In this document: positions 275-43,318 of the stretch, piece after piece
How positions within the stretch are numbered: the first letter of the stretch is position 1
How the letters are laid out: each line of letters begins with the position of its first letter
Virus record (IMG/VR): IMGVR_UViG_3300045988_181214
DNA: 43,968 nucleotides
Strand: one strand, 5' to 3'
Source of the DNA: a virus
Taxonomy: Duplodnaviria > Heunggongvirae > Uroviricota > Caudoviricetes
The notes under the pieces: model-generated
What the model saw: only the letters and a program-made list of their open reading frames with translations
Told to the model about the DNA's origin: nothing
Databases searched by the model: none
Made by a program: the position numbers and the translations under genes

Positions 275-1438
275 ATGACTGCAAAAGAAATTGATTTTTT
301 GAGCTCGCGTGAAATAGTAGGTTTCACGCTGCCTGTGTTGCATACCAAGGGCGGTTACTGGTATGTTGACTTTACTGCCTTTGACCCTGTTTCGGGTCGG
401 ATGAAGCGCAAGAAATATATGCTTAATAGGTACAAGACTGACCACAAGAAGCGTATGATGGGTACCTTGCTTATCCACAATATCACGGCAAAATTGACCG
501 CTGGATGGAATCCTTGGGTGAATGCCGACAAGTCGAGACAATTCACCGAAATACCAATTATCTTTAGTCGTTATCGTGATTATATTAAGTCGATGACCGA
601 CAAAAAGTCGATGAAGGAAAAGACCTCTATCGACTACCTCAGCCGCCTCAAGACTCTGGAGTCTTTCATCACTGAGTGCAAGAGTGTCAAATATGCCTAT
701 CAGATTGACCGTGCCTTCGCCATCGACTTCTTAGACCACCTGATGTATGACCGTGATGTGAGTGCTACCACAAGAAACAACTATCGCTCTTGGCTTGTCT
801 CCTTCGGCACTTGGCTTATGGATAGAAAATATATCAGCGAGAACCCTGCCATCGACATCAGAAACATCGCTCAGAAGGAGAAGTTCAGAGACCCTTTGAC
901 CGAGGGCGCGCTTAAGAAGCTGAAGACTTATCTCTATGATAACAACAGACATTTTCTCTTGGCTTGCCTCTTTGAATATTATACCTTTATCCGACCGAAT
1001 GAGTTGACGCAGATAAGAATCAAAGATGTGTCGATTGCTGACCAGACGGTCTTTATCAGTTCTGCCATCAGCAAGAACCGTAAGGACGGACTTGTGGCAT
1101 TGAACGATGAAATCTTGAAGCTCATGATAGAGCAGAAGATATTTGAGCATCCGGGACATTGTTTTATCTTTGGCAAGGGGTTGAAGCCTGGTGAGGAGCG
1201 AGCACCTTATAACCAACTGAGAGTAGAGTGGGGCAAGATGCGAGATGCTATTGGGTTTCCGAAGGAGTATCAGTTTTATAGCCTGAAGGACACTGGCATC
1301 AGGGATTTGGCGAACGCACAGGGTATCGTGGTCGCCAAGGATCAGGCACGCCACTCTGATATATCTGTGACGAATCGATATATCAAGAACCAGATGAAAG
1401 TGAACGAGGAGACCAAGCACTTCAAAGGTGGGCTTTAG
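275..1438 (+). CDS. int: Tyrosine recombinase / phage integrase
   Basis: 387-aa ORF next to tRNA-att site; C-terminal ARHSDISVTNRYI matches the box II H-x-x-R ... Y catalytic region of tyrosine recombinases. Confidence 0.85.
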   Translation: MTAKEIDFLSSREIVGFTLPVLHTKGGYWYVDFTAFDPVSGRMKRKKYMLNRYKTDHKKRMMGTLLIHNITAKLTAGWNPWVNADKSRQFTEIPIIFSRYRDYIKSMTDKKSMKEKTSIDYLSRLKTLESFITECKSVKYAYQIDRAFAIDFLDHLMYDRDVSATTRNNYRSWLVSFGTWLMDRKYISENPAIDIRNIAQKEKFRDPLTEGALKKLKTYLYDNNRHFLLACLFEYYTFIRPNELTQIRIKDVSIADQTVFISSAISKNRKDGLVALNDEILKLMIEQKIFEHPGHCFIFGKGLKPGEERAPYNQLRVEWGKMRDAIGFPKEYQFYSLKDTGIRDLANAQGIVVAKDQARHSDISVTNRYIKNQMKVNEETKHFKGGL

Positions 1439-3427: not shown

Positions 3428-6400
3428 TTATTTGTTTGACTTCATTTTTTGATATTGGCTCCATTGGCGGTCGAAGCCATCGGGGCCGGTGATGACCACG
3501 TATGACTTGATGCCAGCGTTGAGCTGCTCGTTGAGTCTGTCGATGGTGGTATGCACGCTATCGAGGGATGCGCCCATCTGCTCGGTGTCGCCACCTGAGA
3601 CGTTGACCACTGGGGCGACCACGGCTGCGCTGCCTGTGCCCATGGCACGGCTCACGTCTTGGGCGGTGAGCGAGGCGACCGTGTTGTTGCGCTGCGCCAT
3701 ATCGATGAGCTGCAGGGCAGGGAGGAGCTGAGGATTGTTGACGGCGTTGTGGTTGGCGACGAACTCGCCAGCGTGAACCACGCCAGCCTCTTTCTTGTAA
3801 TTGCCAGGACCAGTGAAACCACCCTCGTAATAGCCAGCCGCCTCTGCCTGGTGCTGCTTTTTGATTGTTGCTATCTGGAGCATGCCCGCTGCGGTGGCGA
3901 GACCTGCGGCGATAGGACCAAGGATGTGACCCACCACTGGGATGGCTGCGGCTGATGAGTAGGCGTTGATGGCAGCCATGGCGGTTGAAGCTATGGCTTG
4001 TGCGATCTCTATCTTCATCGCCTTTTTGTTGGCCTTGCTCTTGGCTGCAGCCACCTCTTTGTCTCGCTTCGCCTCGAGACGCTTTTTCTTGGCTGAGTTG
4101 TTGCCAGCGGCAGAAATCTGCTTATCGTAGTTTTTCTCAATCTTGGCGACCTCTAGGTCTGAGCATGCCTGGGAGTAGGCGGAGGCAGCGCCCATCATCG
4201 TGTTGATGCTGCTGAAGGCAGCGCCAGCGATGGAGGCTATCTCTTGATAGGTCTCTTTGTTCATCTGCTTTTTGGCATCCTGGTATTGCTGCTCGCTGAT
4301 TTTATCCTCGTCTCGAAGATTTTTGAGGTTATCGTTGACCATCTTTTGCTGTTGGATGGCTGCGATGGCACCACCAGCGATTGTGGCGAGGTTGTCGCTG
4401 CCCATGGCATTGTTGCTGTCACCATTGCCCTTGGTCATCTTTTTGGCGGTGTCGAGGGCGGTGTTGGCATCCTCCTTGCGCTGCTCATCGGCGGTTGGCT
4501 TGTATGAGGCGTATTTGTTGGCGATGCCCATCTTTGTGCGCTGGTATTCCTCCTCTCTGATGAGACCTGCCTTGTAGATGGCTTCGAGTCCCTGCAGATC
4601 TAGCTGCATCTGCTCTTCGTTGCCGAGCTTGCCGTATTCTTGGCGCAGCTGAAGGAGTTGCTCGTCGTGCTGCTTCTGAAGGTCGTATTTGCGTTGCTGT
4701 TGGGTCAGCTCTCGCTCTTTCTCGATCTGGGCATACTCGTCAGATGAGGAGAGGTAGAGGGCTTGCTTTTTGTTGAGATAGTCCTGGTATGAGAGGAAGA
4801 GAGCCTCGTTGACGGCATCCTCATTGTGATAGAGGTTGGAGTCTTTGTTGTAGTAATCGGCATTGAGCTTCATTTCTTTTTTCTGTCGCTCGGTCTCCAG
4901 GGCTTCGAGGTCGGCGGTCTGCTTTTTCTCGTAGTCGGCGGCGATATTCTCTTTCTCAGCGTTCAATCGCTTGAACTCTTCGCTCTCTGCCTCGCCATAC
5001 TTTTTGAGGATGTCGAGGCGAGCCTGAAGCCCCTGTTCTTTGATATTCTTCATCTTCTCGTTGTATTCGGCGAGTCGAATCTGACCTGTAGCGTAGAGGG
5101 TCTTGGCATCGAGCTCTTCGGCTTGGTTGGCTTTCTTTGCATCGTCTAGCTCTTTTTTCATGTCAGCCTTGCGCTTAGCCTCTGCCTTGCGAGCGGCAGC
5201 CTCACGTTTCTTTTTCTCCTTTTCGGCAGCTTTGCGCTCTTTCTCGGTCATGGTATGACCAGAGGAAGGGGTGGTGTGTGTCTCTGTAGTTGCGCTATTG
5301 TTTAGTAAATTCTTCTTTACAGTCTTGTTGTACTGTTTCTGCAAATTTACGTTTTTCTCTAATTGCTGATTATAGAAATTCTCTTCAGCATTGACTTGCT
5401 TTTGCAGGCTTAGGTTTGCCTGTAGTCTTTGCGTATGAACTTGCTTTTGCTTCTCGTTACTCTTCAGTGCCTCGTTTTGTTCGATGAGCTGACCTGTCCA
5501 TCCATCAGCCACGGCATTGCTCTCATATTGCTTAGGATGAGCCTTGCGCTCAGCATCGACAGCCTTCAGCGAATATCGTATGCGGCTTTCTTTTTGTTTG
5601 AGTTCCAGTTTCTTTTTATTGATTTCCACCTTGCGCTCATAGATGGCTTCTGCCATGGCAGCATTTTCTAGCTCCTTGATGTAGTTTTGGATGGCAATCT
5701 GGTTGTCGTTATACAACTTGCCCTCTTTGGAGATAGAGGCGTGATATTCTGGGACGAGCTTTATCATATTTGCGATAGCTTGCTTTCGCTCGTCAACGGT
5801 ATAGGCATTGGAGTGGATAACCTTGTTGAGCATATCGACCTTGTTGCGCTCATCGAGGGTAGCATCAGACACCTTTTTGGCGAGGCTGGCTTGAGCCTCT
5901 GCCACTGCTCTGTTGTTTTTAGCCTCTTGCGTGTTGTTGCGCATCGCCTCGTTGTAAGATGTTATGGCTTTGTATGCCCCATAGGCAGCCACGCCCACCA
6001 CGGTGATGACTGTGGCGAGGGCAGCCCATGGATTGGTGAGACTTGCTAGGCGTGCTGCCCTCATCACCACGATGTAGCCCTGTATGCCTTTTGTGAGATA
6101 AGCCCATGTGGCTTGCAGTGCCACTAAGGCAGCACGCAAGAGTGTAGATGTAGCGGTATAAGCTTTATCGACAGCTGAAGCGTATTGTACGGCGGCTGTT
6201 TTAATCTTAATGGCGATGGTCTCCTTGTACCAGAGAGCAGTACAAACAGCGATGGCTGTTGACAGCACGGCTATTTGTTTTGCATAGGTGACGGTGAAGG
6301 TGATGAGCGTGGACATGACCTTTATGGTCAGACTGAATGATGTGATGCCATATTTCATGGCAGGGATGAGTTTTTCTCCGAGTTCGATGGTGAGGTCTTG

Positions 6401-10784: not shown

Positions 10785-12359
10785 TCACGTGAATTTATAG
10801 AACTTCTTTTTGAATTTATTGTGAAGCTCTGCGACCACGGTGGAGAAGGGTAGCTCATCACGACAGAAGTCGTTGAGGGCTTGGTCTATCAAGATCTTGG
10901 AGCCTGTATAGAGGTAGTGCTCCAGAGGTTGCCATACCTCGGTGCCGTCTGGCTCCAGGTGGTCGATGATGCGATAGCGTAGGGAGAGGCGCTTCTTGGG
11001 CACCTCTTTGGTGACCATGTGGGTGGAGCCGTCCGGGGCGGTCTCCTCTTGCTGGATGGTCTCCTTCTCTATCACCGAGTCATCGACCTTGTAGTCTATC
11101 ACTTGAACGAGGAACTTGTTCTCGTCCTGACCCTCACGGCAGATGATGTCCTCGATGGACTGCTGCTGTGATTTCTCCATACCGTCAAAAGGCACGCGCG
11201 CACGGCGAGCCTTGACGAGTTTACCGAATCTTTCCATACCGATTTTCTTATATAAGTTTTTAGAGTTTGCGTGGATGCCCAGACCTAGGCGAGAGGCTGC
11301 CTTGAGCTGTATCTGGCGGTCTGTGAAGCCCGCCTTGCGTAAGTTGGCGATCTGTCTGCAGAGGTCGTGCTTGAACCGCTTGCGCAACAGGGCGTGGTCG
11401 GCGTAGATGATCTGACCGCATAAGTCGATGCCATCGCAGGTGCGGTGGATACCCCAAGACTTATTGATGGATAGGTGCCAGTCACGGGCGAGGTGCATCA
11501 CGGCAAGCTCTGCCATCAGCCTGAGGAACACCTTATCCTCGTGGAGGATGTAGATGTTGTCCATGAAGCGGTAATAATGGCGAAGACCTTGGCGGCAGAA
11601 GCGCTCGAACCTATCGTTGAGCGACTTCACTCCCCCGCATAGCAGTTGAGCTTGCTGCTGAGTGCGACAGGTAACGAGCATGTCGCTCACGTAGCGAGCC
11701 TGCCAGTAACGGAACTTGTCGGTGTCTTGGAGAATGTCGAAGCATCGGAGTGCCAGGTAATCGAAGCGGGCGAGGAAGAGCTGACCCAAGAGTTGGGCGA
11801 GCTTGACGCCGAGCACGATGCCTGGATTGAAGCTATCGACCACCTCGTCGATGAAGGCGAGGAGCTTGCGGTCTTTGATCTTGCGGCGATATTCACTTTT
11901 GAGAAGAGCGTGGTCTATGCTCTGAAAATAATGGTGAATATCCATGGGCAAGCAGTAGAAGGTATCTTGCTGTGGCGAGTTGAAGATGTCTCGCTTGACA
12001 AGATTATAGAAATAATGGGTGCCCTTGCCCTTGGAACCAGCCGGACTGTGGCTGTAGAGTGTCTTGCGAAGGTTATCCTCTACAGGTTGCAGGGCAGCGT
12101 GCTGGATGACGTGGTCGATAACGGGCAGCTTGTTGACTTGGCGATGTTTTGGATAGTCGATATCTTTGGCGACATAGGCTGAGGTATGCCAAGTTTGTTG
12201 GGTGTAAGCATCGAGCATGCGTCCGATGTTATGGTCTAGGTTTGCCTCGAATTTTTGGACCGCACGGCGAGACATCTTTTGTCGGGCGTAGTCATAGAAT
12301 GCCCGACGAAAGTTGTCTAGTGTCTCGACCTGTAGCGATATGTTGCCAAACCTTTTCAT
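10785..12359 (-). CDS. Reverse transcriptase (DGR-type), catalytic motif non-canonical
   Basis: 524 aa from first ATG (track ORF starts at GTG 12428); RT motif 2 SPAGSKGKGTHY, motif A LPMDIHHYFQSIDH, motif B-like GIVLGVKLAQLLGQLFLARFD; sits 208 bp downstream of the template repeat. Confidence 0.8.
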   Translation of the reverse strand: MKRFGNISLQVETLDNFRRAFYDYARQKMSRRAVQKFEANLDHNIGRMLDAYTQQTWHTSAYVAKDIDYPKHRQVNKLPVIDHVIQHAALQPVEDNLRKTLYSHSPAGSKGKGTHYFYNLVKRDIFNSPQQDTFYCLPMDIHHYFQSIDHALLKSEYRRKIKDRKLLAFIDEVVDSFNPGIVLGVKLAQLLGQLFLARFDYLALRCFDILQDTDKFRYWQARYVSDMLVTCRTQQQAQLLCGGVKSLNDRFERFCRQGLRHYYRFMDNIYILHEDKVFLRLMAELAVMHLARDWHLSINKSWGIHRTCDGIDLCGQIIYADHALLRKRFKHDLCRQIANLRKAGFTDRQIQLKAASRLGLGIHANSKNLYKKIGMERFGKLVKARRARVPFDGMEKSQQQSIEDIICREGQDENKFLVQVIDYKVDDSVIEKETIQQEETAPDGSTHMVTKEVPKKRLSLRYRIIDHLEPDGTEVWQPLEHYLYTGSKILIDQALNDFCRDELPFSTVVAELHNKFKKKFYKFT

Positions 12360-12567
12360 AAGCGGTGTAATGTCTGTGTTGAACGGTGTATAAACTGTGT
12401 ATAGTCTGAATCGTCTGCTTTTGTACACTTGATAACCTTCGACCGGATGACCGTGTTGTCATCATCTACCAGCTGTCTTATTAATGTGTATGTATCGCCA
12501 TGGGGCGAGGATTGACCCTGTAATCTCGAAGTGGGAGCAAACGACCCACGAAGAGATATGTCTGTAA

Positions 12568-12927: not shown

Positions 12928-14400
12928 TTAGGCCGCCTCGTAATACACGGGTTCAACGGACCACTCGGATGCTGCTTCGCAGAGGGCGGCGCCGCAGTTC
13001 ACATAGGCATTCGAGACAGCATTGTTCACGTCGAGCGTAGAAAGACCGCATTGACCACCATCGTAAGCGCTAGCACCACGAAGGCAGACACGAAAACCGG
13101 ATGTAGCACCAGACGTATTCCAGAAATAGCTAGTCCAGTAGGTTGACTCGGATGCGCCCGTAGCGGTCGGGAAGTTCTCTAGATGCTCCATCGAGAGCGT
13201 CTTGATATAGCCTTCGCCCTTGGTCGGCGAGGTGCTGTAAGCCACCATGCCATCGGTGGAACCTATCGTCCACGTGCCGTAGATGGACGGTGCCACGAGA
13301 TGGGTCACGGAAGTGTCCTCGTTGCAACGCACCTGCTCGTCATCCATGTGTCGCCACAATAAGCCGAAGCCATTTTTGTAGCCGAAGAAGGATGGTATCT
13401 TGGCGGTATAGACCACGGTGCCATCGTCTTTTTTGACCTCGTAGCTCGCCTCGCCGCAAGCGTCGCCAAGCTCGATGCCAGCCGACATCGGCACGACAGG
13501 GCGATAGCCGTTGTAACCACCCCAATCAGGCATCTGTGTCACGCCAGCGCCGAGACCACCCTGGTAGAGACCGTTGGCATCTTTTTGGCTGTTGACGGCA
13601 TCCTGGTCGTAGTGGGTGCCGAAGATGACCCCGAAGAGCACGGAGATGGCAGAGGTGTGGCGCATGGTGGTGCAGAGCCAGCCTGTGCCGTTTTTGCGGG
13701 CAGCAGCACGCCAGTATTCGGTAGTCTGGTTGGTGGCAGCCTTGCCCAGCATGGTGCGGTTGGTGTTATCTAACGTGGAGTCGTTGTTGCCGCCTCGGTA
13801 GTTTGTGCCCTCGTTGATGTAGCTCACCAGCTTGCCTGTGCTGCGCTCTAGCGTGGCGAAGCCAGCGGCGGAGATGCTGCCCACAGGTATCTTGTAATTG
13901 TACTCGCCTGGTATCGGCGTAGGGCTGACCATCTCGTAATGGAGTCTGCCCACGGTCTTGATGACCATGTACCACTCCTTGCCCCAGCCCCACTGGTAGT
14001 GCCCCTCTGAGCCATCGAGCTTGGCTGTCTCGCCGGTGGCATACTTGTGGTGGTCTTTGGAGTCGAGCTTGCGACGGGAGTGGTCATTCTTGACCAGATA
14101 ACAGCCCAGACCCAGCTCCGTTGGTAGGGTCTGCAGTAACTCTAGCGAGCCCACATAAGTGGCGGCTTTAGGGGTTGCATTGTCGAGGTTCCACACTCGA
14201 CCACACCAAGGATGCTGTCCCATTTGGACGGCGCTTTTGAGCGACATCTGCTCAGACCTGCCGGATTTTTTGTCGAAGACCTCGACAATCTTGTCAGTGG
14301 CGCTCATGTCTGACTGTGGGAGGTCGTCAACCTGTTGACCTCCATCGAAAGCGGCTATGATAGCCTTGAGCTTACTCTCTTCTTCTGATGTTAATGCCAT
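12928..14400 (-). CDS. DGR target protein: tail-fibre / receptor-binding protein with C-terminal variable region
   Basis: 490 aa from ATG (track ORF extends to 14448); VR occupies the last ~40 codons; lies within the tail-fibre gene block. Confidence 0.75.
   Translation of the reverse strand: MALTSEEESKLKAIIAAFDGGQQVDDLPQSDMSATDKIVEVFDKKSGRSEQMSLKSAVQMGQHPWCGRVWNLDNATPKAATYVGSLELLQTLPTELGLGCYLVKNDHSRRKLDSKDHHKYATGETAKLDGSEGHYQWGWGKEWYMVIKTVGRLHYEMVSPTPIPGEYNYKIPVGSISAAGFATLERSTGKLVSYINEGTNYRGGNNDSTLDNTNRTMLGKAATNQTTEYWRAAARKNGTGWLCTTMRHTSAISVLFGVIFGTHYDQDAVNSQKDANGLYQGGLGAGVTQMPDWGGYNGYRPVVPMSAGIELGDACGEASYEVKKDDGTVVYTAKIPSFFGYKNGFGLLWRHMDDEQVRCNEDTSVTHLVAPSIYGTWTIGSTDGMVAYSTSPTKGEGYIKTLSMEHLENFPTATGASESTYWTSYFWNTSGATSGFRVCLRGASAYDGGQCGLSTLDVNNAVSNAYVNCGAALCEAASEWSVEPVYYEAA
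12979..13100 (-). repeat. DGR variable repeat (VR) at the 3' end of the target gene
   Basis: Encodes the C-terminal ...GFRVCLRGASAYDGGQCGLSTLDVNNAVSNAYVNCGAALC of the target; matches the TR except at template-adenine positions; GC-rich 3' end GCGGCGCCGCCC (IMH-like). Confidence 0.85.
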
Positions 14401-14422
14401 AATAAAAATTATATTTAATCGA

Positions 14423-15187
14423 TTAAACAATGCGTAATTTATCACCAACTTTTCTAAGCTTGCCCGATGCCGACAGGCGAAGGCGAGGCTGGCGCACGGT
14501 GATGCTGACCTCTTGCCAGAGCGGTGTGTTGGCGGTGGGGATGACCCAGAACTTGGTGGTGCCCTCGCCCTTGATGATGAGGTTGCCGCTTGGGTCTGCC
14601 ACGAGCGAGTCGCCCTCGGCTCGCTGGAAGAGCACGCTCTGAGGGAGGTAGCTCGGCAGGATCTGCACGGCGATGCGCAGAGCCACCTTGTTGCGTAGGC
14701 TTATCTCGGGGAGATAGGTCAGGTTCATGCGAGCTGGCGCGATGAAGCCTGTGGTTATCTGAGCGGCGAGACCATCCATCTGCGCTATCTTGGCATCGGC
14801 TCGCTTGGATGCCGCGTCAGCCTCTGCAGCCTTGGTCTCTGCCAAGGCTGCCTGTGATGCTGCAGCCTCGCCCTGCTCGCCAGCCGCCTTGGCTGCGCTC
14901 TGGGCGAGGTTAGCCGCCTTGTTGGCATCGTCGGCCGCACCCTGCGCTCTGACGGTCGGTGTCTTGTCGAGCCACAAGCGCCACTTGGCGTTGGTATCTG
15001 AAGGAGTCGTCGTGTTGCCATCCTCTAGGGAGGCGAAGACTCCTGACGATGTGTGAACGATGTCGCCCTCGTCGTAGCCCTTGACGGTCTGGCCATCCTC
15101 ATCTTGATAGGAGTAGCCCGACTGCCAGGTGCCCTGGTCGGTGAAGGCGACATTGCCCACGATAATGATGTTTGTGTTATCTGCCAT
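14423..15187 (-). CDS. Tail fibre-associated protein (Ala/Gln-rich coiled region)
   Basis: 254-aa ORF, ATG start; central AAKAAGEQGEAAASQAALAETKAAEADAASKRADAKIA repeat-like segment. Confidence 0.5.
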   Translation of the reverse strand: MADNTNIIIVGNVAFTDQGTWQSGYSYQDEDGQTVKGYDEGDIVHTSSGVFASLEDGNTTTPSDTNAKWRLWLDKTPTVRAQGAADDANKAANLAQSAAKAAGEQGEAAASQAALAETKAAEADAASKRADAKIAQMDGLAAQITTGFIAPARMNLTYLPEISLRNKVALRIAVQILPSYLPQSVLFQRAEGDSLVADPSGNLIIKGEGTTKFWVIPTANTPLWQEVSITVRQPRLRLSASGKLRKVGDKLRIV

Positions 15188-30499: not shown

Positions 30500-32101
30500 C
30501 TATAGCATGGAACCCGTGGCGATGTAGCCATCAGCCTGAGGGTATTTCTCCATGCCAATCATGAGCGTGTCGTAGGCATCGGAGCCATCGGTGCGAGCCT
30601 CCAACTTATCCTCCTCGGTCTCAGCCAGCTTCTCGCCTCGCTTATCCTTCTTGCCGTTGTAGACCCCGGCCAGGCGGATGGAGATGAGCAGGTCTTCGTT
30701 GTTCTCGCTGTTGATCATCGAGCGATGCTCAGCCTTGCCGAGGAACATGCGGTTGAGCAGAAGCATCTTTTCGAGATGTCCCATCGGGTTGCCCAGATAG
30801 ACCTCGTTGACATACCAGCCATGGTCGGTGAGGTAGTCGGTGATGAAGGTATGGAAGTCATCGTTCATCAGGGCGTAGTTGTTGCCCACGAAGGTGGAGT
30901 CGTAGTAGAAGTTGACCTCTTTGCACCGATGGTACTCATAGTACTGCATGAACTTGTCGAGCAGGGCTGGCAGCTTCTCCTCATACTTCACGAAGATGCT
31001 CTTGAGGCAGCGTGCCTCGCCCCGCAGGTTGTCTTGTCCGACGGCTATCCAGTTGATGAGGGCGTTGGCATCGAAGGCGATGCAGAGCGGACGGTCGGGG
31101 TCAACGTCGGCATCCATTCTGGAATCTACATGCTTGAGCTTGTCGATGTCGTAGCCCAAGCCATCGAGGTAGGCGAGGTTGGGCGCCGTGTATAGGTTGG
31201 CATCCCTGAGGTTGGAGTAGAAGCCATCGAGCGAGATGGAAGGTCGCTTGCACATGATGGAGGTCTGGAAGGTGAGGGCAGGGAGGTCTCGCTTCATCTG
31301 CTTGATGAACTCCATGCCGAGCACCTCGATGTTATAGACCGATGAGTACTCTTTATAGAAGAGTGCCTTGGAGCGCAGTTGCGCCAGGAGCTGACCAATC
31401 TCTCGGAGTCGGCGCTGGGCATAGCCTGAGACATGGCCCGAGGTCTTGATGCGGTTGCGTATGTCATACTCCTCTACCACGAGCGAGGCGATGGCGTCGA
31501 TGAGCAGCTGGTCGCAGTCTTTCTTGTAGTTGAGGAACCAGGAGCCCTTCTTGGTCACGGGCATATCAGAGGTGATGAGCATGCCATGGTGGTAGTAGTG
31601 CTGGCCGAAGAGGTTGACGTTGCCTCGATTGGCAGGGAAGGTCTCGTCTTTGAGCTGTTCGAAGTTGATGAACTTCGCCTCGTCGATGTCGAGGTAGTCG
31701 AGCGAGAGGGAGTTGGAGGTACCCTTGCGGTCTTGCGAGATGATGGTACCGATGGAGCCGTTATAGAAAGAGATGGTGTTCTCCCAGTTGCTGGGCGGTA
31801 TGACCGGGTCGGGCCATCCCAGTTTTTTGGGAGGCTTGACCCCGATGAGATAATGCTTGCCCCGGTGGAAGCCCCATCGCTCCCAGTGCTGAAGCATCGA
31901 CGGTATGGTGTTGGTGAGGCATCGCTTGGTGTTGGCGGATACGAAGCCGCCGTTGCTGCCAGGCATGCGCTGCATGTTGCGCAGGTTGAAGGTGGCGTGG
32001 AGAATGCTCTTGCCGATGCCTCGACCGCCCACGACCACGTTGTCGCGGGCGGAGATGAGGTTGACCTCCATCTGGGCTGGGTTGAGATATTGATCTATCA
32101 T
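30500..32101 (-). CDS. terL: Terminase large subunit
   Basis: 533 aa; N-terminal Walker A VVVGGRGIGKS, Walker B-like LDYLDIDEA, Asp-rich C-terminal nuclease-like half. Confidence 0.8.
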   Translation of the reverse strand: MIDQYLNPAQMEVNLISARDNVVVGGRGIGKSILHATFNLRNMQRMPGSNGGFVSANTKRCLTNTIPSMLQHWERWGFHRGKHYLIGVKPPKKLGWPDPVIPPSNWENTISFYNGSIGTIISQDRKGTSNSLSLDYLDIDEAKFINFEQLKDETFPANRGNVNLFGQHYYHHGMLITSDMPVTKKGSWFLNYKKDCDQLLIDAIASLVVEEYDIRNRIKTSGHVSGYAQRRLREIGQLLAQLRSKALFYKEYSSVYNIEVLGMEFIKQMKRDLPALTFQTSIMCKRPSISLDGFYSNLRDANLYTAPNLAYLDGLGYDIDKLKHVDSRMDADVDPDRPLCIAFDANALINWIAVGQDNLRGEARCLKSIFVKYEEKLPALLDKFMQYYEYHRCKEVNFYYDSTFVGNNYALMNDDFHTFITDYLTDHGWYVNEVYLGNPMGHLEKMLLLNRMFLGKAEHRSMINSENNEDLLISIRLAGVYNGKKDKRGEKLAETEEDKLEARTDGSDAYDTLMIGMEKYPQADGYIATGSML

Positions 32102-32727
32102 AGTGCTTTGTCCTCCTTGACTTCTTCTGTAGGTGTATATTCCAAGAGCTGTTCGTCGTAGTCCTCGGCCTCGATCTTGACGAGATCCATGGAGTTGTCG
32201 GTGTATTTCTTGACGAGCTTCTTGATGGTCTGCATCACGTTAGGGATGCGCTTGAGACCCAAGTGTCGTGGGTCGGTGGTAGGGATGAAGACCTGAGGCT
32301 GAATCTGGTCGTAGCCGTTGTCGGTAGGATCCTCTTTGTCGAGCAGGTGATATTTGCCGTATGCAGCTGCGGCGGCAGCCATGGCTCGGGCATCGCCCAT
32401 GGAGTCGGCCTTGTCGTAGGTGCGCTGTATCATCTGGTCGAAGCGATAGCGGGCGAAGTCTTTTGACACTTTTTGCAGGTTGCCCAATATGAGCTTGATG
32501 AGGTGCAGGTCGTTGTAAGCCATCATGCGCTGCACCTTGTAGTCGTGCATATCTTTATAGACCAGCTCTTGGTCGCTCTTGCGAGGGTTGATGAGCCACC
32601 AGGCATAGAGGGCACGGATGCGCAAAATGCGGTCGCGCACTGGGGCGGGCACATTTTGCGCATCCATCTCTTCGGGTGTGCGGTCCATCAGTTCGATGAT
32701 GGCATCGATGTTGGCGGGTTCTCTCAT
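32098..32727 (-). CDS. Putative terminase small subunit
   Basis: 209-aa ORF translationally coupled (ATGA) to terL; assignment by position only. Confidence 0.35.
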   Translation of the reverse strand: MREPANIDAIIELMDRTPEEMDAQNVPAPVRDRILRIRALYAWWLINPRKSDQELVYKDMHDYKVQRMMAYNDLHLIKLILGNLQKVSKDFARYRFDQMIQRTYDKADSMGDARAMAAAAAAYGKYHLLDKEDPTDNGYDQIQPQVFIPTTDPRHLGLKRIPNVMQTIKKLVKKYTDNSMDLVKIEAEDYDEQLLEYTPTEEVKEDKAL

Positions 32728-36064: not shown

Positions 36065-37090
36065 TTATGCAAACTGATTTAAAACATCCAACACTTGATC
36101 TGAGCAGAAATCCTCGACCTTGGTGTCATCGACAGCAGTGTGCGTGTCGCCACCAGGCTCTCCCTCCAGATCCTTCACTTTATCCTTCAGGTCATCTCTC
36201 TCCTTTTCGAGATTCTTGACCTTAGTCTCTAACTCCTTCTTCTCGTCCTTGACCTTCTGAAGCTCTGTGTCTTTGTCGGTCACGGCCTTGGAGTCGGCAG
36301 CGATCTTATCCTCCAGTTTCTGCATCTGCTCCTGTGAGATTGTGCAGTTCTTTGCGGAATCTTCTGCCTCAATGCCCTCGATATTGAGGACATTGTTGAT
36401 GTGAGTCCATTTTTTGATCATATTAATAATTTTATTTTGTGATTTATCTTTGCCGAATAATCGGTCGATGATGCTTGGCTTTTTATCATACCAGGAGTTA
36501 ACAACCTCTGGGAGAACAGGAAGGTTGTTGTACTTGATGAAGTCTTGCGTCTGCTCGGTGATGTCGGCAGGCTTGCCATCCATGGCTTCATCGACGAGAC
36601 CCAGTTCGATGCACTCATCGACGGTGTGCCACATCGCTTCGGACATCACCTTGACGATGTCCTCGTGCTTCTTGCCCGAGCGATCGCAGTAAACGTTGGC
36701 GATGATGTTGTCGATTTTCTGCTGGTTCTCTTGCTGTTTTTGAAGTTGCTCGATGAGCGAGCCTATCTGCTCCTCGTTGAGCGCAGACCACACAAACTGC
36801 TCGGTAGAGCACTTGTGTACCAGGAGCAAGCTATATTTGCTCATGCGAATCTTGCTGGCACCCATCGCACAGATGGTGGCAGCAGAGGCAGAGAAGCCCG
36901 CCTGGAAGTCAACGGTCACGTCGCCATGGGACTTGAACATCTGACAGATGGCGAGACCTGCGGAGACCTCGCCACCCAAGGAGTCGATGGCAACATCGAC
37001 GTGCTTATCTTTGTTGGCCTTAAGAACATCGCGAACCATGAGCTTGGTCCACGAGCCAATATATCCTGTGATAGAAATTTGGTACTTCAT
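36065..37090 (-). CDS. ClpP-family prohead protease with C-terminal coiled-coil (scaffold-like) domain
   Basis: IDSLGGEVSAGLAI, catalytic Ser in GFSASAA, His in LVHKC, Asp in GLVDEAM align with ClpP; C-terminal ~100 aa is a Lys/Glu/Asp-rich coiled-coil. Confidence 0.8.
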   Translation of the reverse strand: MKYQISITGYIGSWTKLMVRDVLKANKDKHVDVAIDSLGGEVSAGLAICQMFKSHGDVTVDFQAGFSASAATICAMGASKIRMSKYSLLLVHKCSTEQFVWSALNEEQIGSLIEQLQKQQENQQKIDNIIANVYCDRSGKKHEDIVKVMSEAMWHTVDECIELGLVDEAMDGKPADITEQTQDFIKYNNLPVLPEVVNSWYDKKPSIIDRLFGKDKSQNKIINMIKKWTHINNVLNIEGIEAEDSAKNCTISQEQMQKLEDKIAADSKAVTDKDTELQKVKDEKKELETKVKNLEKERDDLKDKVKDLEGEPGGDTHTAVDDTKVEDFCSDQVLDVLNQFA

Positions 37091-37649: not shown

Positions 37650-38234
37650 TTAATCTTTGCTAAATCTTGTTGTAGATGTTAAATTTACGCCTCTTTTTGC
37701 GTGTTGATCACGCATTCTGTAGAAACATTGGCGTACGGTATCCTCGTAATCGATGCCAATGCCATGCTGTTCGCACCATGCCGAAATGAGCGATGAAAGC
37801 TTGCATGAGCGGTCGGCGATGTCTTTGAGCGAAGCCCAGAGATCCATCTTGAAGAGGTCGGAAATCATCTCTTTGACGGCACGTCTGGCACGTGGCCCGA
37901 GGTAGTTGTACTCTCGCACAGGCTTAGCCTTGGAGTCAGGCAGCTCGATGGCAAGATACTCTTCGGGATGGGTGAGCCATCGGCTCTGCTCGAACTCCTC
38001 GTCGTGGAAGGTATGCTTGACACTTTGGTGCAGTTGGCTGGCATCAGCCTGCTGCATCTCTTGGATGTTCTCTTGGTCGATAGGCGATAGGTTGACAACG
38101 GGAGGTCTGCTGGTGAACTTGCGGAGCACAGCCACCTCGTTGCCGATGGCAGGGAAGACCACTGGGTTGCCATAAGCTCGGTAAGCCCATTGTCTGATGT
38201 GGGTAGGAACTTTGATGTAAACAATTGGATTCAT
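37650..38234 (-). CDS. Hypothetical phage protein
   Basis: 194 aa from ATG 38234 (track starts at TTG 38246); promoter motif 21 nt upstream. Confidence 0.5.
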   Translation of the reverse strand: MNPIVYIKVPTHIRQWAYRAYGNPVVFPAIGNEVAVLRKFTSRPPVVNLSPIDQENIQEMQQADASQLHQSVKHTFHDEEFEQSRWLTHPEEYLAIELPDSKAKPVREYNYLGPRARRAVKEMISDLFKMDLWASLKDIADRSCKLSSLISAWCEQHGIGIDYEDTVRQCFYRMRDQHAKRGVNLTSTTRFSKD

Positions 38235-38254
38235 ATAGCTATGCAATTTTCGTG

Positions 38255-38262
38255 CAAAGATA
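38255..38262 (-). promoter_or_regulatory. -7 promoter element (TAtcTTTG)
   Basis: Minus-strand GTATCTTTGCACG upstream of ATG 38234. Confidence 0.45.
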
Positions 38263-38378
38263 CAAAGAAAATTTGAAATAACTAACGATAATCGGTAAAA
38301 ACTAACTTTTATCAGTAAATTTGGTGTGATATAATTTCGTCCGAAAAGTTTGTATTTTTGTATCGTACAAACAAGGCT

Positions 38379-38638
38379 CTGTAACTAGCTGATAATCAAT
38401 ACTATTTTTGTGATACAATTTTCTGATACAGAAATTGTAACTCTTTAGCTTTTGTAACTTGGGGTTTTGTCGAGGTCGAAGACCTGTAGGAGAAGGGGCT
38501 TGTTACAAACTTGAAAAACTTTGTAACCGAGTTGTAACGCAACTTTGTAAACATCGGCATGGCGGCTTAACTCACTCTTTTTTAGTTATTTACCTCTTTT
38601 GCTAACATTATGTTACAGAGTTACAAAGGATTTGTATA
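38379..38638. repeat. Iteron cluster (TTGTAAC repeats, both orientations): putative replication origin
   Basis: At least 8 copies of (T)TTGTAAC or its complement GTTACA(A) in an AT-rich ~260-bp stretch downstream of the primase-helicase gene. Confidence 0.45.
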
Positions 38639-38770
38639 AAATAAAAGAAAGGGGTGTGGGGAAAACGATGGCACGGGGCGTGAAGGAGGTTAGAAAAGGC
38701 CCATCGAGACACCCAGGACACCCCCATTGGCCAATGGAGGGGTAGCGAGACGAAACATCGCCCATGGCAA

Positions 38771-38807
38771 CGAAAAAAGGGAGCGACGGCCAATGCGCAT
38801 CGCTCCC
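38771..38807 (-). terminator. Hairpin plus U-tract downstream of the primase gene
   Basis: 8-bp stem GGGAGCGA / TCGCTCCC with 14-nt loop, followed on the minus strand by TTTTTTCG; the nearby perfect palindrome CCATTGGCCAATGG (38724-38737) is part of the same GC-rich block. Confidence 0.4.
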
Positions 38808-38939
38808 TCGTAACATGGGAAAAGAATTATAAATCAGCAAAAATCTGCCTATGAAATCAGCCCTCGTCTGCTTGCAAAAATAGTGAAAAATTGCTTGAAA
38901 ATTTAGCCGAAAATATTTGCATAATTCAGATATTTTTTG

Positions 38940-38947
38940 TACCTTTG
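38940..38947 (+). promoter_or_regulatory. Plus-strand -7 promoter element (TAccTTTG), antisense to the primase 3' end
   Basis: gTACCTTTGCAC, third copy of the 12-mer; no credible plus-strand ORF downstream. Confidence 0.25.
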
Positions 38948-38988
38948 CACTATAACTTGGGGCTATCTATTCTATTATATATGGATGG

Positions 38989-41943
38989 CTAGAAAGGTTT
39001 ATCACTATCTTTATCTACCTTGCTCCAGTCAATGGTAGATTGATATTCACCCCCAGCTGCAGGGACATCAGCCTTGGCAGCTTGTTTATCCTCTTTTTTA
39101 TCATCACTCTTCTTGCTTCGGAGATAGATCATCTCGACAGGGCTGCCGTCTGGGTTAGCTGGATCGCGTCTGATGATGCGGTGCTGGCTGTTGCAGAGAT
39201 CAGCTGGGTTCAGCTCTTGGATGTATGGACACAGCTCGACGAAGGCTCTGAGCTTTTTGGTGAAGCTCTGTGTGGTCGCCTTGTTGATGCCTGAGAACTG
39301 CTTGAAGTCATTGAACGCACGCTCTCTCACGATAAATGTATCGAGTCGCTCGCTCTCTTCTGAGAAGTAGGATGCAGCCCAGTCTTCGAAGTTGACACCC
39401 ATGTCGGCCTTGAACTTGCGCTTGATGATGTTATCCATCGGTGGCATGATCTTGATAGGTTCGCCAGCCAAGGAGAGATAGAAACGACAGCACTGCAGGA
39501 AAAAGTTGATGTCAGCATTCCACTCATCCTCAGTGTATGTCTTTGAGAAGAGATCTTCGTCGAAGTCATCACGGATGCTTCGGGTCTCTTGGTAATCATT
39601 CTCCTCTGTGCGCTGATGGTAATAGTCGGAGAACACCATATAGAGCAGTCTCGCCTCTGAGGAAGGGTCGAAGTCTGCCGGCACGTAGTTGGTGGTGAAG
39701 GCAATCTTCGGGCTATCCTCGAAAGGAATTGTGAAGCTCTGGTTGTTCTTTGGGTTGACTGTCATATCTGAAGTAATGTTATCGTAAAATAAACCTGTGT
39801 TGAGATAGCGGTCACAGTCATCGAGGAGCAGCATCTGGGTGTGCTGTGTCACCTGATCGAAGACGTGTGGGTTGTCCATCAGCTTAGGGTTGCGTCCGGA
39901 AAGCTTGACTGTTTTCATCAGCAGTGAAAGCGTCTTGAAGAAGAAACTCTTACCGGAACGGCCGTTGCACTCGTTGTTTTCACCAATCTTGTTGTCCATC
40001 GCCATCGGAGCCCAAGCCCTGGATGGTGCCTTGTAATGATGGAGCATGTAGCCGAAGGTGAAAATCTTGTTTATCAAGTTCTGCTTTTGCTCTTGTATCT
40101 CGTTGTCGGCAAGCCCTTCGCCAGCGATGTCGAAGAGGTGTGCCTTGTGGTATGCCTCTTTCTCCTCGATGCTCTTGTCCTCAAAAGCATACTCTAGCTC
40201 TTTGCGCCAGTAGGTGCGAGAGGCGTTGATGAGATAGCCGAAGAAGTGGGACTTCACGTTCTTGACCTCGATGTCGAACTTCGGCCTGCCATCCTCGTCG
40301 ATGGTTCGTGTGATGGAGAACATGTCATCCAACTTCTTGAAGTTGTGGTTGATGACATTCTCTTGCCAAACATAGTTTTTGAGCGAGCTGCCCTCACGCT
40401 GGTACTCGTTTAGTCCATCTTTGGTGACCTCGACGCTGACACGAGGGAAGAAGAACAACTGCGAGTGGTTGGTGTAGCTGGTGAAGTCTAGCGTAATCTC
40501 TTGGAGCGAGTCGAGCGCCGATGCCGACAGCTTTGGCGTGTTGAGCACCAAGTTAAGGATGTCACGCTTCTCAGCTCTCTCGATGACCCATTGGCGGCAG
40601 AACTCACGGATGTCTCTCGTGGTGATGAGCTTGACGATGTTGCCCGTGATGCGAACATATTTGGTGATGGTCGAGTTGTCATCGTGCAAGGTATAGAAAC
40701 CATTGAGACGAAGAAAATTGTAGAGGCACGCCGTGTCGATGTAGTGGTCCCAGGTGTTAGCCTTTTTGTTGAGCTTGCTCACCCAAAATCGGGCTGGCAT
40801 CGCCAGTGTCATGAGGTTGCGGAAGTCTTTGCGAGTATTGCGCAGCTCCATCCAGTCTCGCAGGTCTTTGCGCCCCTTGCCACGGTTGTCGTGGTAGGTG
40901 CGAAGCCAAGAAGGCAACCATATCGTATGGATGTCGATGAAGCGCAGGGCAAGCTCTGTGCCCTTGGCGATGCCCGTCTCGTCGATGTCGGGTATATTGT
41001 AGAGCACCTCGACATACTTCATAATCTCTCGGTACTCCTCGTCGCTGAGCTTGTAGGTCTCGGAGTTGAACCATAACGGGTTGTAGCCCATGGAACGGCA
41101 GCAGAGACTGTCACGCTCGCCACTGCAGATGAAAGCCTCGGGAAGTTTCTTCTCCTTGTAAGGCTTGGACTCGTCTGTGTTGGTCTTGTTGTACTCAGCC
41201 TCTTCACGGCGGTTGAACTCGTGATAGGCAGCCTTCAGCTCAGCTAGGCCATTGATGTATTGCTTAGGCTTGATGCCGTCTGGGGTGTAAGAGAATCGCC
41301 ACTGCTTTTGGTAGTTGAGAGGCTCATATATCTTGTAGAACTTAACCTCAGGCTTGTCGCCTTCAGCTGGGCGAACCAAGCACTCACGCATAAAGATAGG
41401 GTAGTGCTCGTTGCTGTGCTTAATCTTGACCTTGCGGTCTTTGACGTATCCTATCCACTTGGCGGAATGCCAGTTGAGTGCATCGACGTGCTCTTGCTTG
41501 ACGTTTGGACCCAGTACCTTCAGTTCATCCTCGGTGAACTTCTCGTTCAGCTCGAAAGGTCTGGTACCATCTTTCTCGTTGATGGTGGCATCACGCTCTG
41601 TGAATGTAGGCTTGTTGACCTCTTTTTTGAGTTCATCGCTAACGTTGTATTCGGAAGCCAGTCTCAGGATGGCATCAGGAAAGCGGTCGATGCACTTCTC
41701 TCTCATGTAGAGGTCGATAGGTGACTCGGCAGAGCCGTCGCCGCCGAAGTCAGTCACTCGCCAGCAGTCTTTGAACTTTTTGAGACTGCAGGAAGGTGTT
41801 TTCTCATTGCGGATGGCAAAGTGCTTTTTAGGCGTGCCAGTCGTGCAATATTTCTGGACGCATTCTTTTGCGTCCGGGTATAGTGAGATGATGATGTCGA
41901 GACCATCATCTGTAGCTTGATAAATTTGTTCTGCTTTGATCAT
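38989..41943 (-). CDS. DNA primase / SF3-type helicase (replication initiator)
   Basis: 984 aa from ATG 41943 (track starts at TTG 41973); C-terminal half has Walker A NGRSGKSFF and Walker B MLLLDDCD; Cys-rich N-terminal region. Confidence 0.7.
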   Translation of the reverse strand: MIKAEQIYQATDDGLDIIISLYPDAKECVQKYCTTGTPKKHFAIRNEKTPSCSLKKFKDCWRVTDFGGDGSAESPIDLYMREKCIDRFPDAILRLASEYNVSDELKKEVNKPTFTERDATINEKDGTRPFELNEKFTEDELKVLGPNVKQEHVDALNWHSAKWIGYVKDRKVKIKHSNEHYPIFMRECLVRPAEGDKPEVKFYKIYEPLNYQKQWRFSYTPDGIKPKQYINGLAELKAAYHEFNRREEAEYNKTNTDESKPYKEKKLPEAFICSGERDSLCCRSMGYNPLWFNSETYKLSDEEYREIMKYVEVLYNIPDIDETGIAKGTELALRFIDIHTIWLPSWLRTYHDNRGKGRKDLRDWMELRNTRKDFRNLMTLAMPARFWVSKLNKKANTWDHYIDTACLYNFLRLNGFYTLHDDNSTITKYVRITGNIVKLITTRDIREFCRQWVIERAEKRDILNLVLNTPKLSASALDSLQEITLDFTSYTNHSQLFFFPRVSVEVTKDGLNEYQREGSSLKNYVWQENVINHNFKKLDDMFSITRTIDEDGRPKFDIEVKNVKSHFFGYLINASRTYWRKELEYAFEDKSIEEKEAYHKAHLFDIAGEGLADNEIQEQKQNLINKIFTFGYMLHHYKAPSRAWAPMAMDNKIGENNECNGRSGKSFFFKTLSLLMKTVKLSGRNPKLMDNPHVFDQVTQHTQMLLLDDCDRYLNTGLFYDNITSDMTVNPKNNQSFTIPFEDSPKIAFTTNYVPADFDPSSEARLLYMVFSDYYHQRTEENDYQETRSIRDDFDEDLFSKTYTEDEWNADINFFLQCCRFYLSLAGEPIKIMPPMDNIIKRKFKADMGVNFEDWAASYFSEESERLDTFIVRERAFNDFKQFSGINKATTQSFTKKLRAFVELCPYIQELNPADLCNSQHRIIRRDPANPDGSPVEMIYLRSKKSDDKKEDKQAAKADVPAAGGEYQSTIDWSKVDKDSDKPF

Positions 41944-42940: not shown

Positions 42941-43318
42941 ATGTTTAATGGTCAGATAATCAGAAAGTTAATGTCGGATGCTGGCTTAACTAAAAAAGAG
43001 TTTGAAAGACGTATGTTCGGTAGTAAATCGACCGACCTCAACCATTTGGAAAAAGCGAAGAATCTTCGCAGTGACACTCTCGAACGTCTGCGTGAGGTGT
43101 TGAAGTGCTCTATGGATGACTTCTTTACAGCACCCTCATGGGCTGAGAACGGAAAGGGGACAGTCGTAGGCTCTAACAATGTGCTGTCAACAGTAGCCAT
43201 CGGCAACGAAGTGATGGAAGCCCAATATCTCAAGGAGTTGCTCTTGGAGAAGGACAAACGCATCAGCACTTTGGAAAATTATATCAAGCTTCTGGAGACT
43301 AACTTAAATAAGGACTAA
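42941..43318 (+). CDS. XRE-family helix-turn-helix repressor (CI-like)
   Basis: 125 aa; N-terminal HTH IIRKLMSDAGLTKKEFERRMFGSKSTDLNHLE; C-terminal coiled-coil; divergent from the early operon and next to attR. Confidence 0.65.
   Translation: MFNGQIIRKLMSDAGLTKKEFERRMFGSKSTDLNHLEKAKNLRSDTLERLREVLKCSMDDFFTAPSWAENGKGTVVGSNNVLSTVAIGNEVMEAQYLKELLLEKDKRISTLENYIKLLETNLNKD

Follow-up and report, generated by a model that had tools for sequence, protein, structure and literature searches.

The subject of this analysis is a cluster of short repeats (iterons) that we consider a candidate replication origin in a stretch of 43,968 nucleotides from a virus of the class Caudoviricetes (IMG/VR record IMGVR_UViG_3300045988_181214), hereafter referred to as the window. 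The window contains nearly a whole prophage, with a tRNA-Met and an integrase gene at one end and a gene for a Cro/C1-type helix-turn-helix (HTH) protein at the other; nearly all genes between the integrase and HTH genes are carried by the minus strand. The repeats are found in a spacer of 754 nt. On one side, this spacer is bordered by the stop codon (38989) of a gene coding for a 984-aa replication protein (38989-41943, minus strand), the presumed initiator. On the other side, it is bordered by the ATG (38234) of the gene for a 194-aa protein, p198 (37650-38234, minus strand), which flanks the array and heads an operon of head-protease and structural genes. All of the features that an initial annotation of this DNA had listed for the region were found where it had placed them, including at least eight copies of TTGTAAC or GTTACA in both orientations.

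Reading in the sense of the replication gene, the first repeats appear approximately 360 nt past its stop codon, and the eight copies of GTTACA, counted in both orientations, fall inside 250 bp. The segment 38379-38626 thus holds 8 of the 14 GTTACA/TGTAAC copies existing in the whole 44-kb window. For the heptamer TTGTAAC/GTTACAA, the corresponding numbers are 6 and 10, while only about 3 would be expected window-wide, and ten copies were reached by none of 100 shuffles. When one mismatch was allowed, 11 of the 76 heptamer matches of the window lay inside 38370-38640, and of 2000 dinucleotide shuffles of the 271-nt region, only 9 produced six or more copies of any heptamer. The clustering of the repeats is thus genuine and not a product of chance. 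No second iteron cluster was found in the 44-kb window, where only four one-mismatch words at approximately 13.3-13.6 kb came together, at chance level. The surrounding DNA had also been described as AT-rich; this holds for most of the stretch (60-78% AT), but not for positions 38445-38500, where the AT content is about 50%.

The repeats form two opposed sets. The first is a pair, GTTACAG and GTTACAA, with a spacing of 8 bp (38612-38626, plus strand), which is 100% conserved in the 43 close relatives used for all element-by-element conservation scores given here. It is followed by an AT-rich centre (38552-38611; about 70-78% AT from 38565 on, 75% conserved), which is a candidate unwinding element. 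Then come three direct iterons, GTTACAA, GTTACAA and TTTACAA (38521-38551, minus strand), oriented opposite to the pair, with starts 11 and 13 bp apart and 92% conservation. A single inverted iteron (38502-38508, plus strand), again 100% conserved, pairs with the iteron at 38521-38527 in an inverted repeat of 11 nt. Outer repeats occupy 38379-38458, with TTGTAAC at 38435 and 38452, two copies of TGATACA at 38411-38430 and CTGTAAC at 38379; here, the conservation is 0.50 for 38435-38458, 0.89 for the TGATACA pair and 0.78 for 38379-38385. Overall, the core iterons are 92-100% conserved, versus 45-50% for the spacers between them and 38-50% for neighbouring spacers in general.

For comparison, we gathered relatives of the locus from 80 viral contigs and 80 genome loci, together with Bacteroides phage BT-TP2 (PQ571279), a cultured relative at 67% identity. 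The nearest genomic relatives belong to Segatella copri (90% protein identity), and others to Prevotella, Bacteroides, Muribaculaceae and related Bacteroidales; the window represents a temperate phage of Segatella/Prevotella/Bacteroides. BT-TP2 is a temperate phage as well, and the paper describing it contains no analysis of replication (PMC12694917). The order of replication gene, spacer of 550-750 nt and p198 homologue is kept in all of the gathered relatives, BT-TP2 included, with the spacer exceeding this length where an extra gene is inserted. GenBank phages gave no DNA match to the spacer region at blastn sensitivity, and searches of the available literature returned no description of this origin.

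The spacer was readable in 127 non-identical relatives, which are the basis of the counts and correlations below. In 114 of them, it contains at least five copies of one heptamer (median 6, maximum 14), whereas a control segment of the same length inside the replication gene did so in 0 of 127. Absence of the repeats from related phages sharing the primase had been named as an argument that would speak against an origin; instead, the repeats are kept. The layout, read in gene sense, is also constant from clade to clade. It begins with a terminator, a variable GC-rich stretch and a tract that is first C-rich, then T-rich and closes with TTTTGTAC(A/T)AAA. It proceeds through two adjacent iterons pointing one way and approximately 50-60 nt of A/T- and purine-rich DNA, and it ends with three or four direct iterons in reverse orientation, spaced by 10-13 bp, one inverted copy and scattered copies. 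In the window, the tract corresponds to the pyrimidine-rich box CCCCACACCCCTTTCTTTTATTTTATACAAATCC (gene-sense strand; 38627-38659, minus strand), which abuts the first iteron pair and is 88% conserved in close relatives; its equivalent is found before the pair in BT-TP2 and in every distant clade.

What changes between lineages is the word itself, and it changes at homologous positions. The window and locus L047 use GTTACAA, while other lineages use ATTACAA, TTTACAA, TTGACAA/GATACAA, (A/T)TCACAA, GTCACAA, GTAACAA, GATACAA, GTTGCAA or GTTACGA. Thus, the homologous iteron pair bears each clade's own word (e.g., TTGTGATtTTGTAAT or TTGTATCTTGTATC), and the homologous triplets or quadruplets at 10-12 bp spacing do likewise in other clades. 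The ACAAA half of the iteron is nearly constant, while the 3-nt half varies. Repeats that are internally consistent and yet lineage-specific would need a trans-acting reader, the specificity of which changes together with the repeats.

The proposed reader is the replication protein. Its open reading frame (ORF; 994 codons) extends to 41973 if started from a TTG, the likelier start being the ATG at 41943 (MIKAEQ...). The protein carries a C-terminal winged-helix domain for DNA binding at residues ~848-943 (39115-39402, minus strand), which is the part that we propose to read the iterons. Several motifs are invariant in the family: EKTPS, known from zinc ribbons of the CHC2 type; the TOPRIM-like CSGERD and DIDETG; and, resembling superfamily 3 (SF3) helicases, a GRSGKS Walker A, a DDCD Walker B and an FTTN motif C. 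From these, we infer putative primase and SF3-helicase activities for the 984-aa protein. Weak matches in some members were obtained to DUF5906 (3 of 10 members at E ~7e-4) and to Zn_ribbon_DnaG (E 0.07), and the homologue in Polaribacter phage Leef_1 was annotated by its depositors as "DNA primase/TOPRIM". Fold matches add a further line of support for a primase-helicase. We also considered whether the protein belongs by sequence to the P4 alpha/D5-like primase-helicase family; phmmer, a PDB profile search and hhalign all gave no significant match, and this membership was rejected. The protein would thus act like an alpha/PriRep-type initiator, although its sequence does not allow us to count it among the members of that family. 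Its own family is large, with more than 1000 database clusters at E < 1e-10, some of them holding thousands of sequences and none having a Pfam domain or a name.

It is also worth describing the tail of the protein that follows the winged helix (38989-39114, minus strand). It is variable, acidic and of low complexity, with ...PF as the last two residues in most relatives. Such an ending resembles the C-terminal tip of bacterial single-stranded DNA-binding protein (SSB), and host replication proteins may dock onto this motif.

The relation between the iteron word and the C-terminal domain is seen best within the clade comprising loci L047-L054 and L075. Residues 1-850 of the replication proteins are 85-98% identical there. 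Over residues 850-960, identity is only 41-62% where the iteron types differ clearly (ATTACAA, GTTACAA x10, and the groups TTTACAA/TTGACAA/GATACAA). It reaches 70-88% where the types are more similar, and proteins sharing one type are 87-100% identical. Accordingly grouped by their C-terminal domains, the loci match the iteron types: L051 and L052 share ATTACAA, L048 and L075 have TTTACAA/GTGACAA, L047 has GTTACAA, and L049, L050, L054 and, more loosely, L053 form the TTGACAA/GATACAA group. By contrast, p198, whose gene is physically closer to the array, is 93-98% identical across three iteron types (98% between L052 and L075).

The same holds for the 127 loci as a whole. In a partial Mantel test (999 permutations) with the protein core and p198 controlled for, word similarity correlated with the identity of the C-terminal domain (r = 0.36, p = 0.001), while the corresponding test for p198 gave r = -0.06 (p = 0.92). 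Among pairs with cores at least 85% identical, the word cosine was 0.82 where the C-terminal domains were at least 90% identical, versus 0.35 where they were below 65%. It stayed at 0.37 with a C-terminal domain below 65% despite p198 being at least 90% identical, and at 0.75 with a C-terminal domain of at least 90% despite p198 being below 80%. Judging from these comparisons, it appears quite probable that the C-terminal domain of the initiator has its binding sites in the repeats. The initial annotation had instead named the N-terminal domain of the primase as the binding partner; this is probably wrong, since the part that co-varies with the repeats is the C-terminal domain.

Keeping this in mind, we interpret the segment ~38500-38660, with the outer repeats down to 38379, as the putative iteron-type origin of a temperate Segatella/Prevotella phage, or at least as the cognate array of its initiator, and we would assign this interpretation a probability of roughly 0.65. 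In such a scenario, the winged helix would read iterons of ~9 bp with the consensus (A/T)GTTACAAAG, as co-variation and fold suggest. The opposed iteron sets flank an AT-rich centre of ~55 bp, and iterons stand ~11 bp apart; this spacing would place the bound protomers on one face of the helix. By analogy with SaPI (Staphylococcus aureus pathogenicity island) Rep/PriRep and P4 alpha, assembly of SF3 helicase rings on both iteron sets might then melt the AT-rich centre. By analogy with SaPI Rep/PriRep5 and P4 alpha, the helicase would load itself and the primase part would lay the first primers.

Several observations weigh against this interpretation. The weakest link is the enzymatic identity of the replication protein, which is read from short motifs, weak matches and depositor annotations. 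The window protein had no significant sequence match in Pfam, NCBIfam or PDB, either alone or as a family profile, and hhalign against P4 alpha aligned only the Walker region, sensibly, at E 0.05 and a probability of 1%. Co-variation of repeats and protein could also stem from co-transfer of adjacent DNA, although the p198 control argues against that. No DnaA boxes were found in the region. The cumulative GC skew, suggested earlier as a check, climbs monotonically without an extremum at 38.5 kb and turned out to be uninformative; this test has little power here, as the genes are one-directional and the element is a prophage. Finally, the most distant relative examined, Leef_1 (locus L082, with a 36% identical primase), lacks an iteron cluster in the 5 kb flanking its primase homologue on each side. 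There, genes directly follow the homologue, and any heptamer reaches at most four copies per 400 nt; hence, the iteron arrangement cannot be extended as far as Leef_1.

Among known systems, the closest layout is that of SaPI, whose ori consists of 6-12 iterons immediately downstream of rep, with an AT-rich centre, at least two opposed iterons per side and a C-terminal winged-helix reader (PMC9371898). The SaPI initiator is at the same time an SF3 helicase (Rep1, PriRep5), fused to a primase in SaPI5, and the iterons of different islands differ together with their cognate Reps (PMC9371898). The locus described here matches this layout point by point (repeats downstream of the gene, AT-rich centre, opposed iterons), and the match between iterons and reader domain emerges here through co-variation. 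The differences are also clear. There is no detectable sequence similarity (no PDB sequence match), and the phylum of the host differs (Bacteroidota). Instead of a satellite, we deal here with a complete temperate phage. The iterons are 7-9 bp long, versus 5-6 bp in SaPI, and they are separated from the gene by a terminator, a GC-rich block that varies and a pyrimidine tract that is conserved.

Comparison with phage P4 leads to the closest rival reading. In the P4 annotation (NC_001609), alpha is followed by a terminator and then by crr, which has type-1 repeats in both orientations; the arrangement of alpha as a self-loading initiator has been described (PMC4234260). The likeness to our locus consists in a terminator at the same position after the replication gene and in repeats running in both orientations. 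The repeats of P4, which are 8 bp long and of the TGTTCACC type, are unrelated in sequence to those of the window, and the profile comparison with alpha was not significant. In P4, the arrays ori and crr are separated by 4.5 kb, and it is the auxiliary crr that follows alpha, whereas a single array was found here. One might thus suppose that the array of the window is likewise a crr-like auxiliary or copy-control site, where the bound initiator stimulates or limits initiation through looping or handcuffing, while strand opening takes place elsewhere. The precedent of P4, with its origin proper 4.5 kb away from the post-alpha array, does speak against an origin at this position, and the binding-site evidence provided by co-variation fits an auxiliary site equally well. 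However, the 44-kb window, being nearly a whole prophage, offers no second iteron cluster that could serve as the origin proper, and the array has its own AT-rich centre with opposed iterons, i.e., the complete layout of a SaPI origin. We therefore consider a crr-like site rather unlikely and retain the origin as the preferred reading.

Another protein worth comparing is ORF904 of pRN1, which combines primase, SF3 helicase and winged helix, and whose origin lies just downstream of its own gene, past a terminator (PMC4234260). The candidate origin of the window is likewise situated beyond gene and terminator. The pRN1 origin, however, consists of a stem-loop of 100 nt and has no iterons, and the pRN1 primase belongs to the archaeo-eukaryotic prim-pol type, whereas the array here is composed of iterons and the primase motifs are TOPRIM-like. 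A different strategy is represented by RepE of F, pi of R6K and lambda O, which are themselves neither helicases nor primases but bring in DnaB/DnaG from the host. Iterons in these systems measure 19-22 bp, and the lambda origin lies within the O gene. In this respect, the initiators of iteron plasmids and lambda are unlike the presumed primase-helicase of the window.

The remaining half of the spacer, adjacent to the replication gene, is GC-rich and had been included in the origin signature because of a hairpin and two palindromes. The 8-bp hairpin at 38779-38807 exists and even extends to ~12 pairs. In the minus-strand RNA, it folds with -24.9 kcal/mol (z -5.0), and the ~12-bp stem is followed by UUUUUU (U6 at 38773-38778); the plus strand folds less stably and lacks a U tract. 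The whole element (38773-38815, minus strand) is 86% conserved, and the substitutions seen in relatives (C to U opposite G, G.U to A-U) keep the pairing only in the minus-sense RNA. Because of this fold with its U tract, the conservation and the strand-specific pairing, the hairpin is the intrinsic terminator that ends the transcript of the replication gene before the array. A scan for sigma-70-type promoters and terminators stayed at chance level and missed this hairpin since its loop exceeds 8 nt.

The palindromes, in turn, are present but not unusual. The perfect 14-bp CCATTGGCCAATGG (38724-38737) is one of four such palindromes in the window, versus ~2.7 expected (44,000/4^7), and the second one, GGCCAATG (38788-38795), lies in the loop of the hairpin. 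The former lies in a GC-rich variable block (38660-38770) of 38% conservation and is itself only 10% conserved. It sits in an insertion of ~38 nt (about 38715-38755) that, among 11 aligned sequences, occurs only in the window and in loci L003 and L004. The block with its palindrome is variable filler and holds no conserved functional element at the sequence level. Thus, of the origin signature as first proposed, the iteron array beside the replication gene has gained strong comparative support, while the GC-rich palindromes and the hairpin are no part of it. A second insertion specific to the lineage of the window, of 45 nt (38833-38877), has the appearance of a local duplication around TTTTTGCTGATTT.

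The presence of promoter-like elements, of a strong hairpin and of several drawable ORFs of 28-75 aa might also suggest that the region gives rise to a structured non-coding RNA or codes for a small protein, with repeats and palindromes as parts of the product. However, Rfam gave no match over 38150-39100, either at the gathering score or at E values up to 1, and the folding of the GC-rich block is unremarkable on both strands (z -2.3 and -1.35). The small ORFs were rejected, as they are not conserved and the indels are not in multiples of three. Indels of 38 and 45 nt distinguish the relatives, which also lack the ATG of a 52-aa ORF. Finally, what is conserved is short words separated by variable spacers and not paired helices. 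An RNA or peptide product therefore seems scarcely credible to us.

On the other side of the array, the spacer holds the promoter of p198 and the structural operon, with a Bacteroides-type -7 box TATCTTTG (38255-38262, minus strand; invariant TTGTATCTTTGC in relatives). Between the iterons and this late promoter, there is a near-invariant box (38327-38366, 97% conserved) with the near-palindrome TTTCGTCCGAAA (38335-38346), which is also kept in the clade L047-L054, whose replication protein is only 64-66% identical. This box may be where a dimeric regulator of the structural operon binds. Near the other end of the spacer, a Bacteroides-type promoter-like element, TTTG-N20-TACCTTTG (38916-38947, plus strand), points away from the iterons and runs antisense into the 3' end of the replication gene; both promoters of this type were identified by eye. 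The block around it (38900-38965) is 95% conserved in the 43 relatives and present in the clade L047-L054. The element mirrors the promoter region of p198 (inverted repeat I1), so that the array stands between two divergent promoters. Downstream of the element, neither an ORF on the plus strand nor a terminator was found; the element could give rise to an antisense regulator or could assist underwinding of the origin through divergent transcription. In BT-TP2 (locus L081), an extra 104-aa gene, gp7, is located between the replication gene and the terminator (4592-4906). Its place corresponds to the antisense promoter block of the window; this part of the spacer is a site of gene gain and loss.

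Protein p198 itself belongs to a conserved family without Pfam, NCBIfam or PHROG matches, which stands at the head of the structural operon in every case. Its model, predicted with confidence (pLDDT, the predicted local distance difference test, 83), shows only weak winged-helix/homeodomain-like fold matches, PDSKAKP and ISAWCE are invariant motifs, and its homologue in BT-TP2 carries the annotation "transcriptional regulator". The repeats could thus be operator or activator sites of the late structural promoter, read by p198 or by another phage regulator. This possibility is favoured by the annotation and the fold matches just mentioned, by the end of the array lying ~120 nt upstream of the p198 promoter, and by the invariant near-palindromic box in between. 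Nevertheless, the iteron type is independent of p198, as both its identity across three types and the partial correlation given above demonstrate. Conservation is highest in the iterons remote from the promoter (38502-38626), at a distance of 250-370 nt from the -7 box, and 5-14 copies arranged as two opposed sets around an AT-rich centre would be unusual for an operator. Hence, an operator is, in our opinion, an improbable explanation.

As the region immediately precedes the structural operon, one might also think of a packaging site (pac or cosB-like) that opens the block of structural genes and is recognised by a small terminase. Lambda cosB and P1 pac do contain multiple short repeats in both orientations. 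The terminase candidates of the window, however, are located ~5.5 kb away: the large one, a weak match, at 30500-32101, and a possible small-terminase ORF, which overlaps it on the upstream side, at 32098-32727. Moreover, the repeats co-vary with the C-terminal domain of the replication protein. Taking both points into account, we regard a packaging site as highly improbable.

It is tempting to speculate, albeit with considerable doubt, that the winged helix and the array represent an exchangeable specificity cassette. At least nine iteron words are found on one conserved scaffold across prophages of Bacteroidales. Such a cassette would allow related co-resident prophages to replicate without cross-talk, and firing may also depend on the divergent promoters that bracket the array. 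The boundaries of the swaps would fall at the junction of the helicase and the C-terminal domain and before the late promoter, and the whole would amount to a system of replicon "incompatibility types" for gut phages. Control by the promoters could be exerted through local negative supercoiling or antisense RNA.

The other features of the prophage complete the picture. The tRNA-Met (83-158) adjoins the integrase gene (275-1438, plus strand) at one prophage end, and the repressor-like Cro/C1-type HTH gene (42941-43318, plus strand) is situated near the other. In the p198-headed operon, p198 is followed by a small ORF, the gene for a ClpP-type head maturation protease (36065-37090) and further structural ORFs. 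Elsewhere in the window, an RT-17 RNA (Rfam, 12411-12512, 59.9 bits) is found directly upstream of a reverse-transcriptase ORF (10785-12428; phrog_1423, E 2e-52), and this unit (10785-12512, minus strand) is adjoined by a tail-protein gene (12928-14448). Together, they constitute a diversity-generating retroelement, which reportedly occurs in BT-TP2-like phages.

The principle proposed here is already known, as SaPI and P4 work this way. What is new is this particular member, found in an abundant and unannotated family of temperate phages from gut Bacteroidales, and the breadth of matched variants of domain and iteron. The family is abundant in the gut Bacteroidales of both humans and animals. 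If our interpretation is true, a function could be given both to a large protein family that bears no annotation and to the C-terminal domain of its members. The module of ~3.7 kb, composed of gene and origin, could then seed replicating vectors for Segatella/Prevotella, for which such tools are, to our knowledge, scarce. The at least nine matched pairs of winged helix and iteron on one scaffold would help in understanding how this fold reads DNA, and they would also provide a natural series for asking whether origin specificity governs the coexistence of related prophages.

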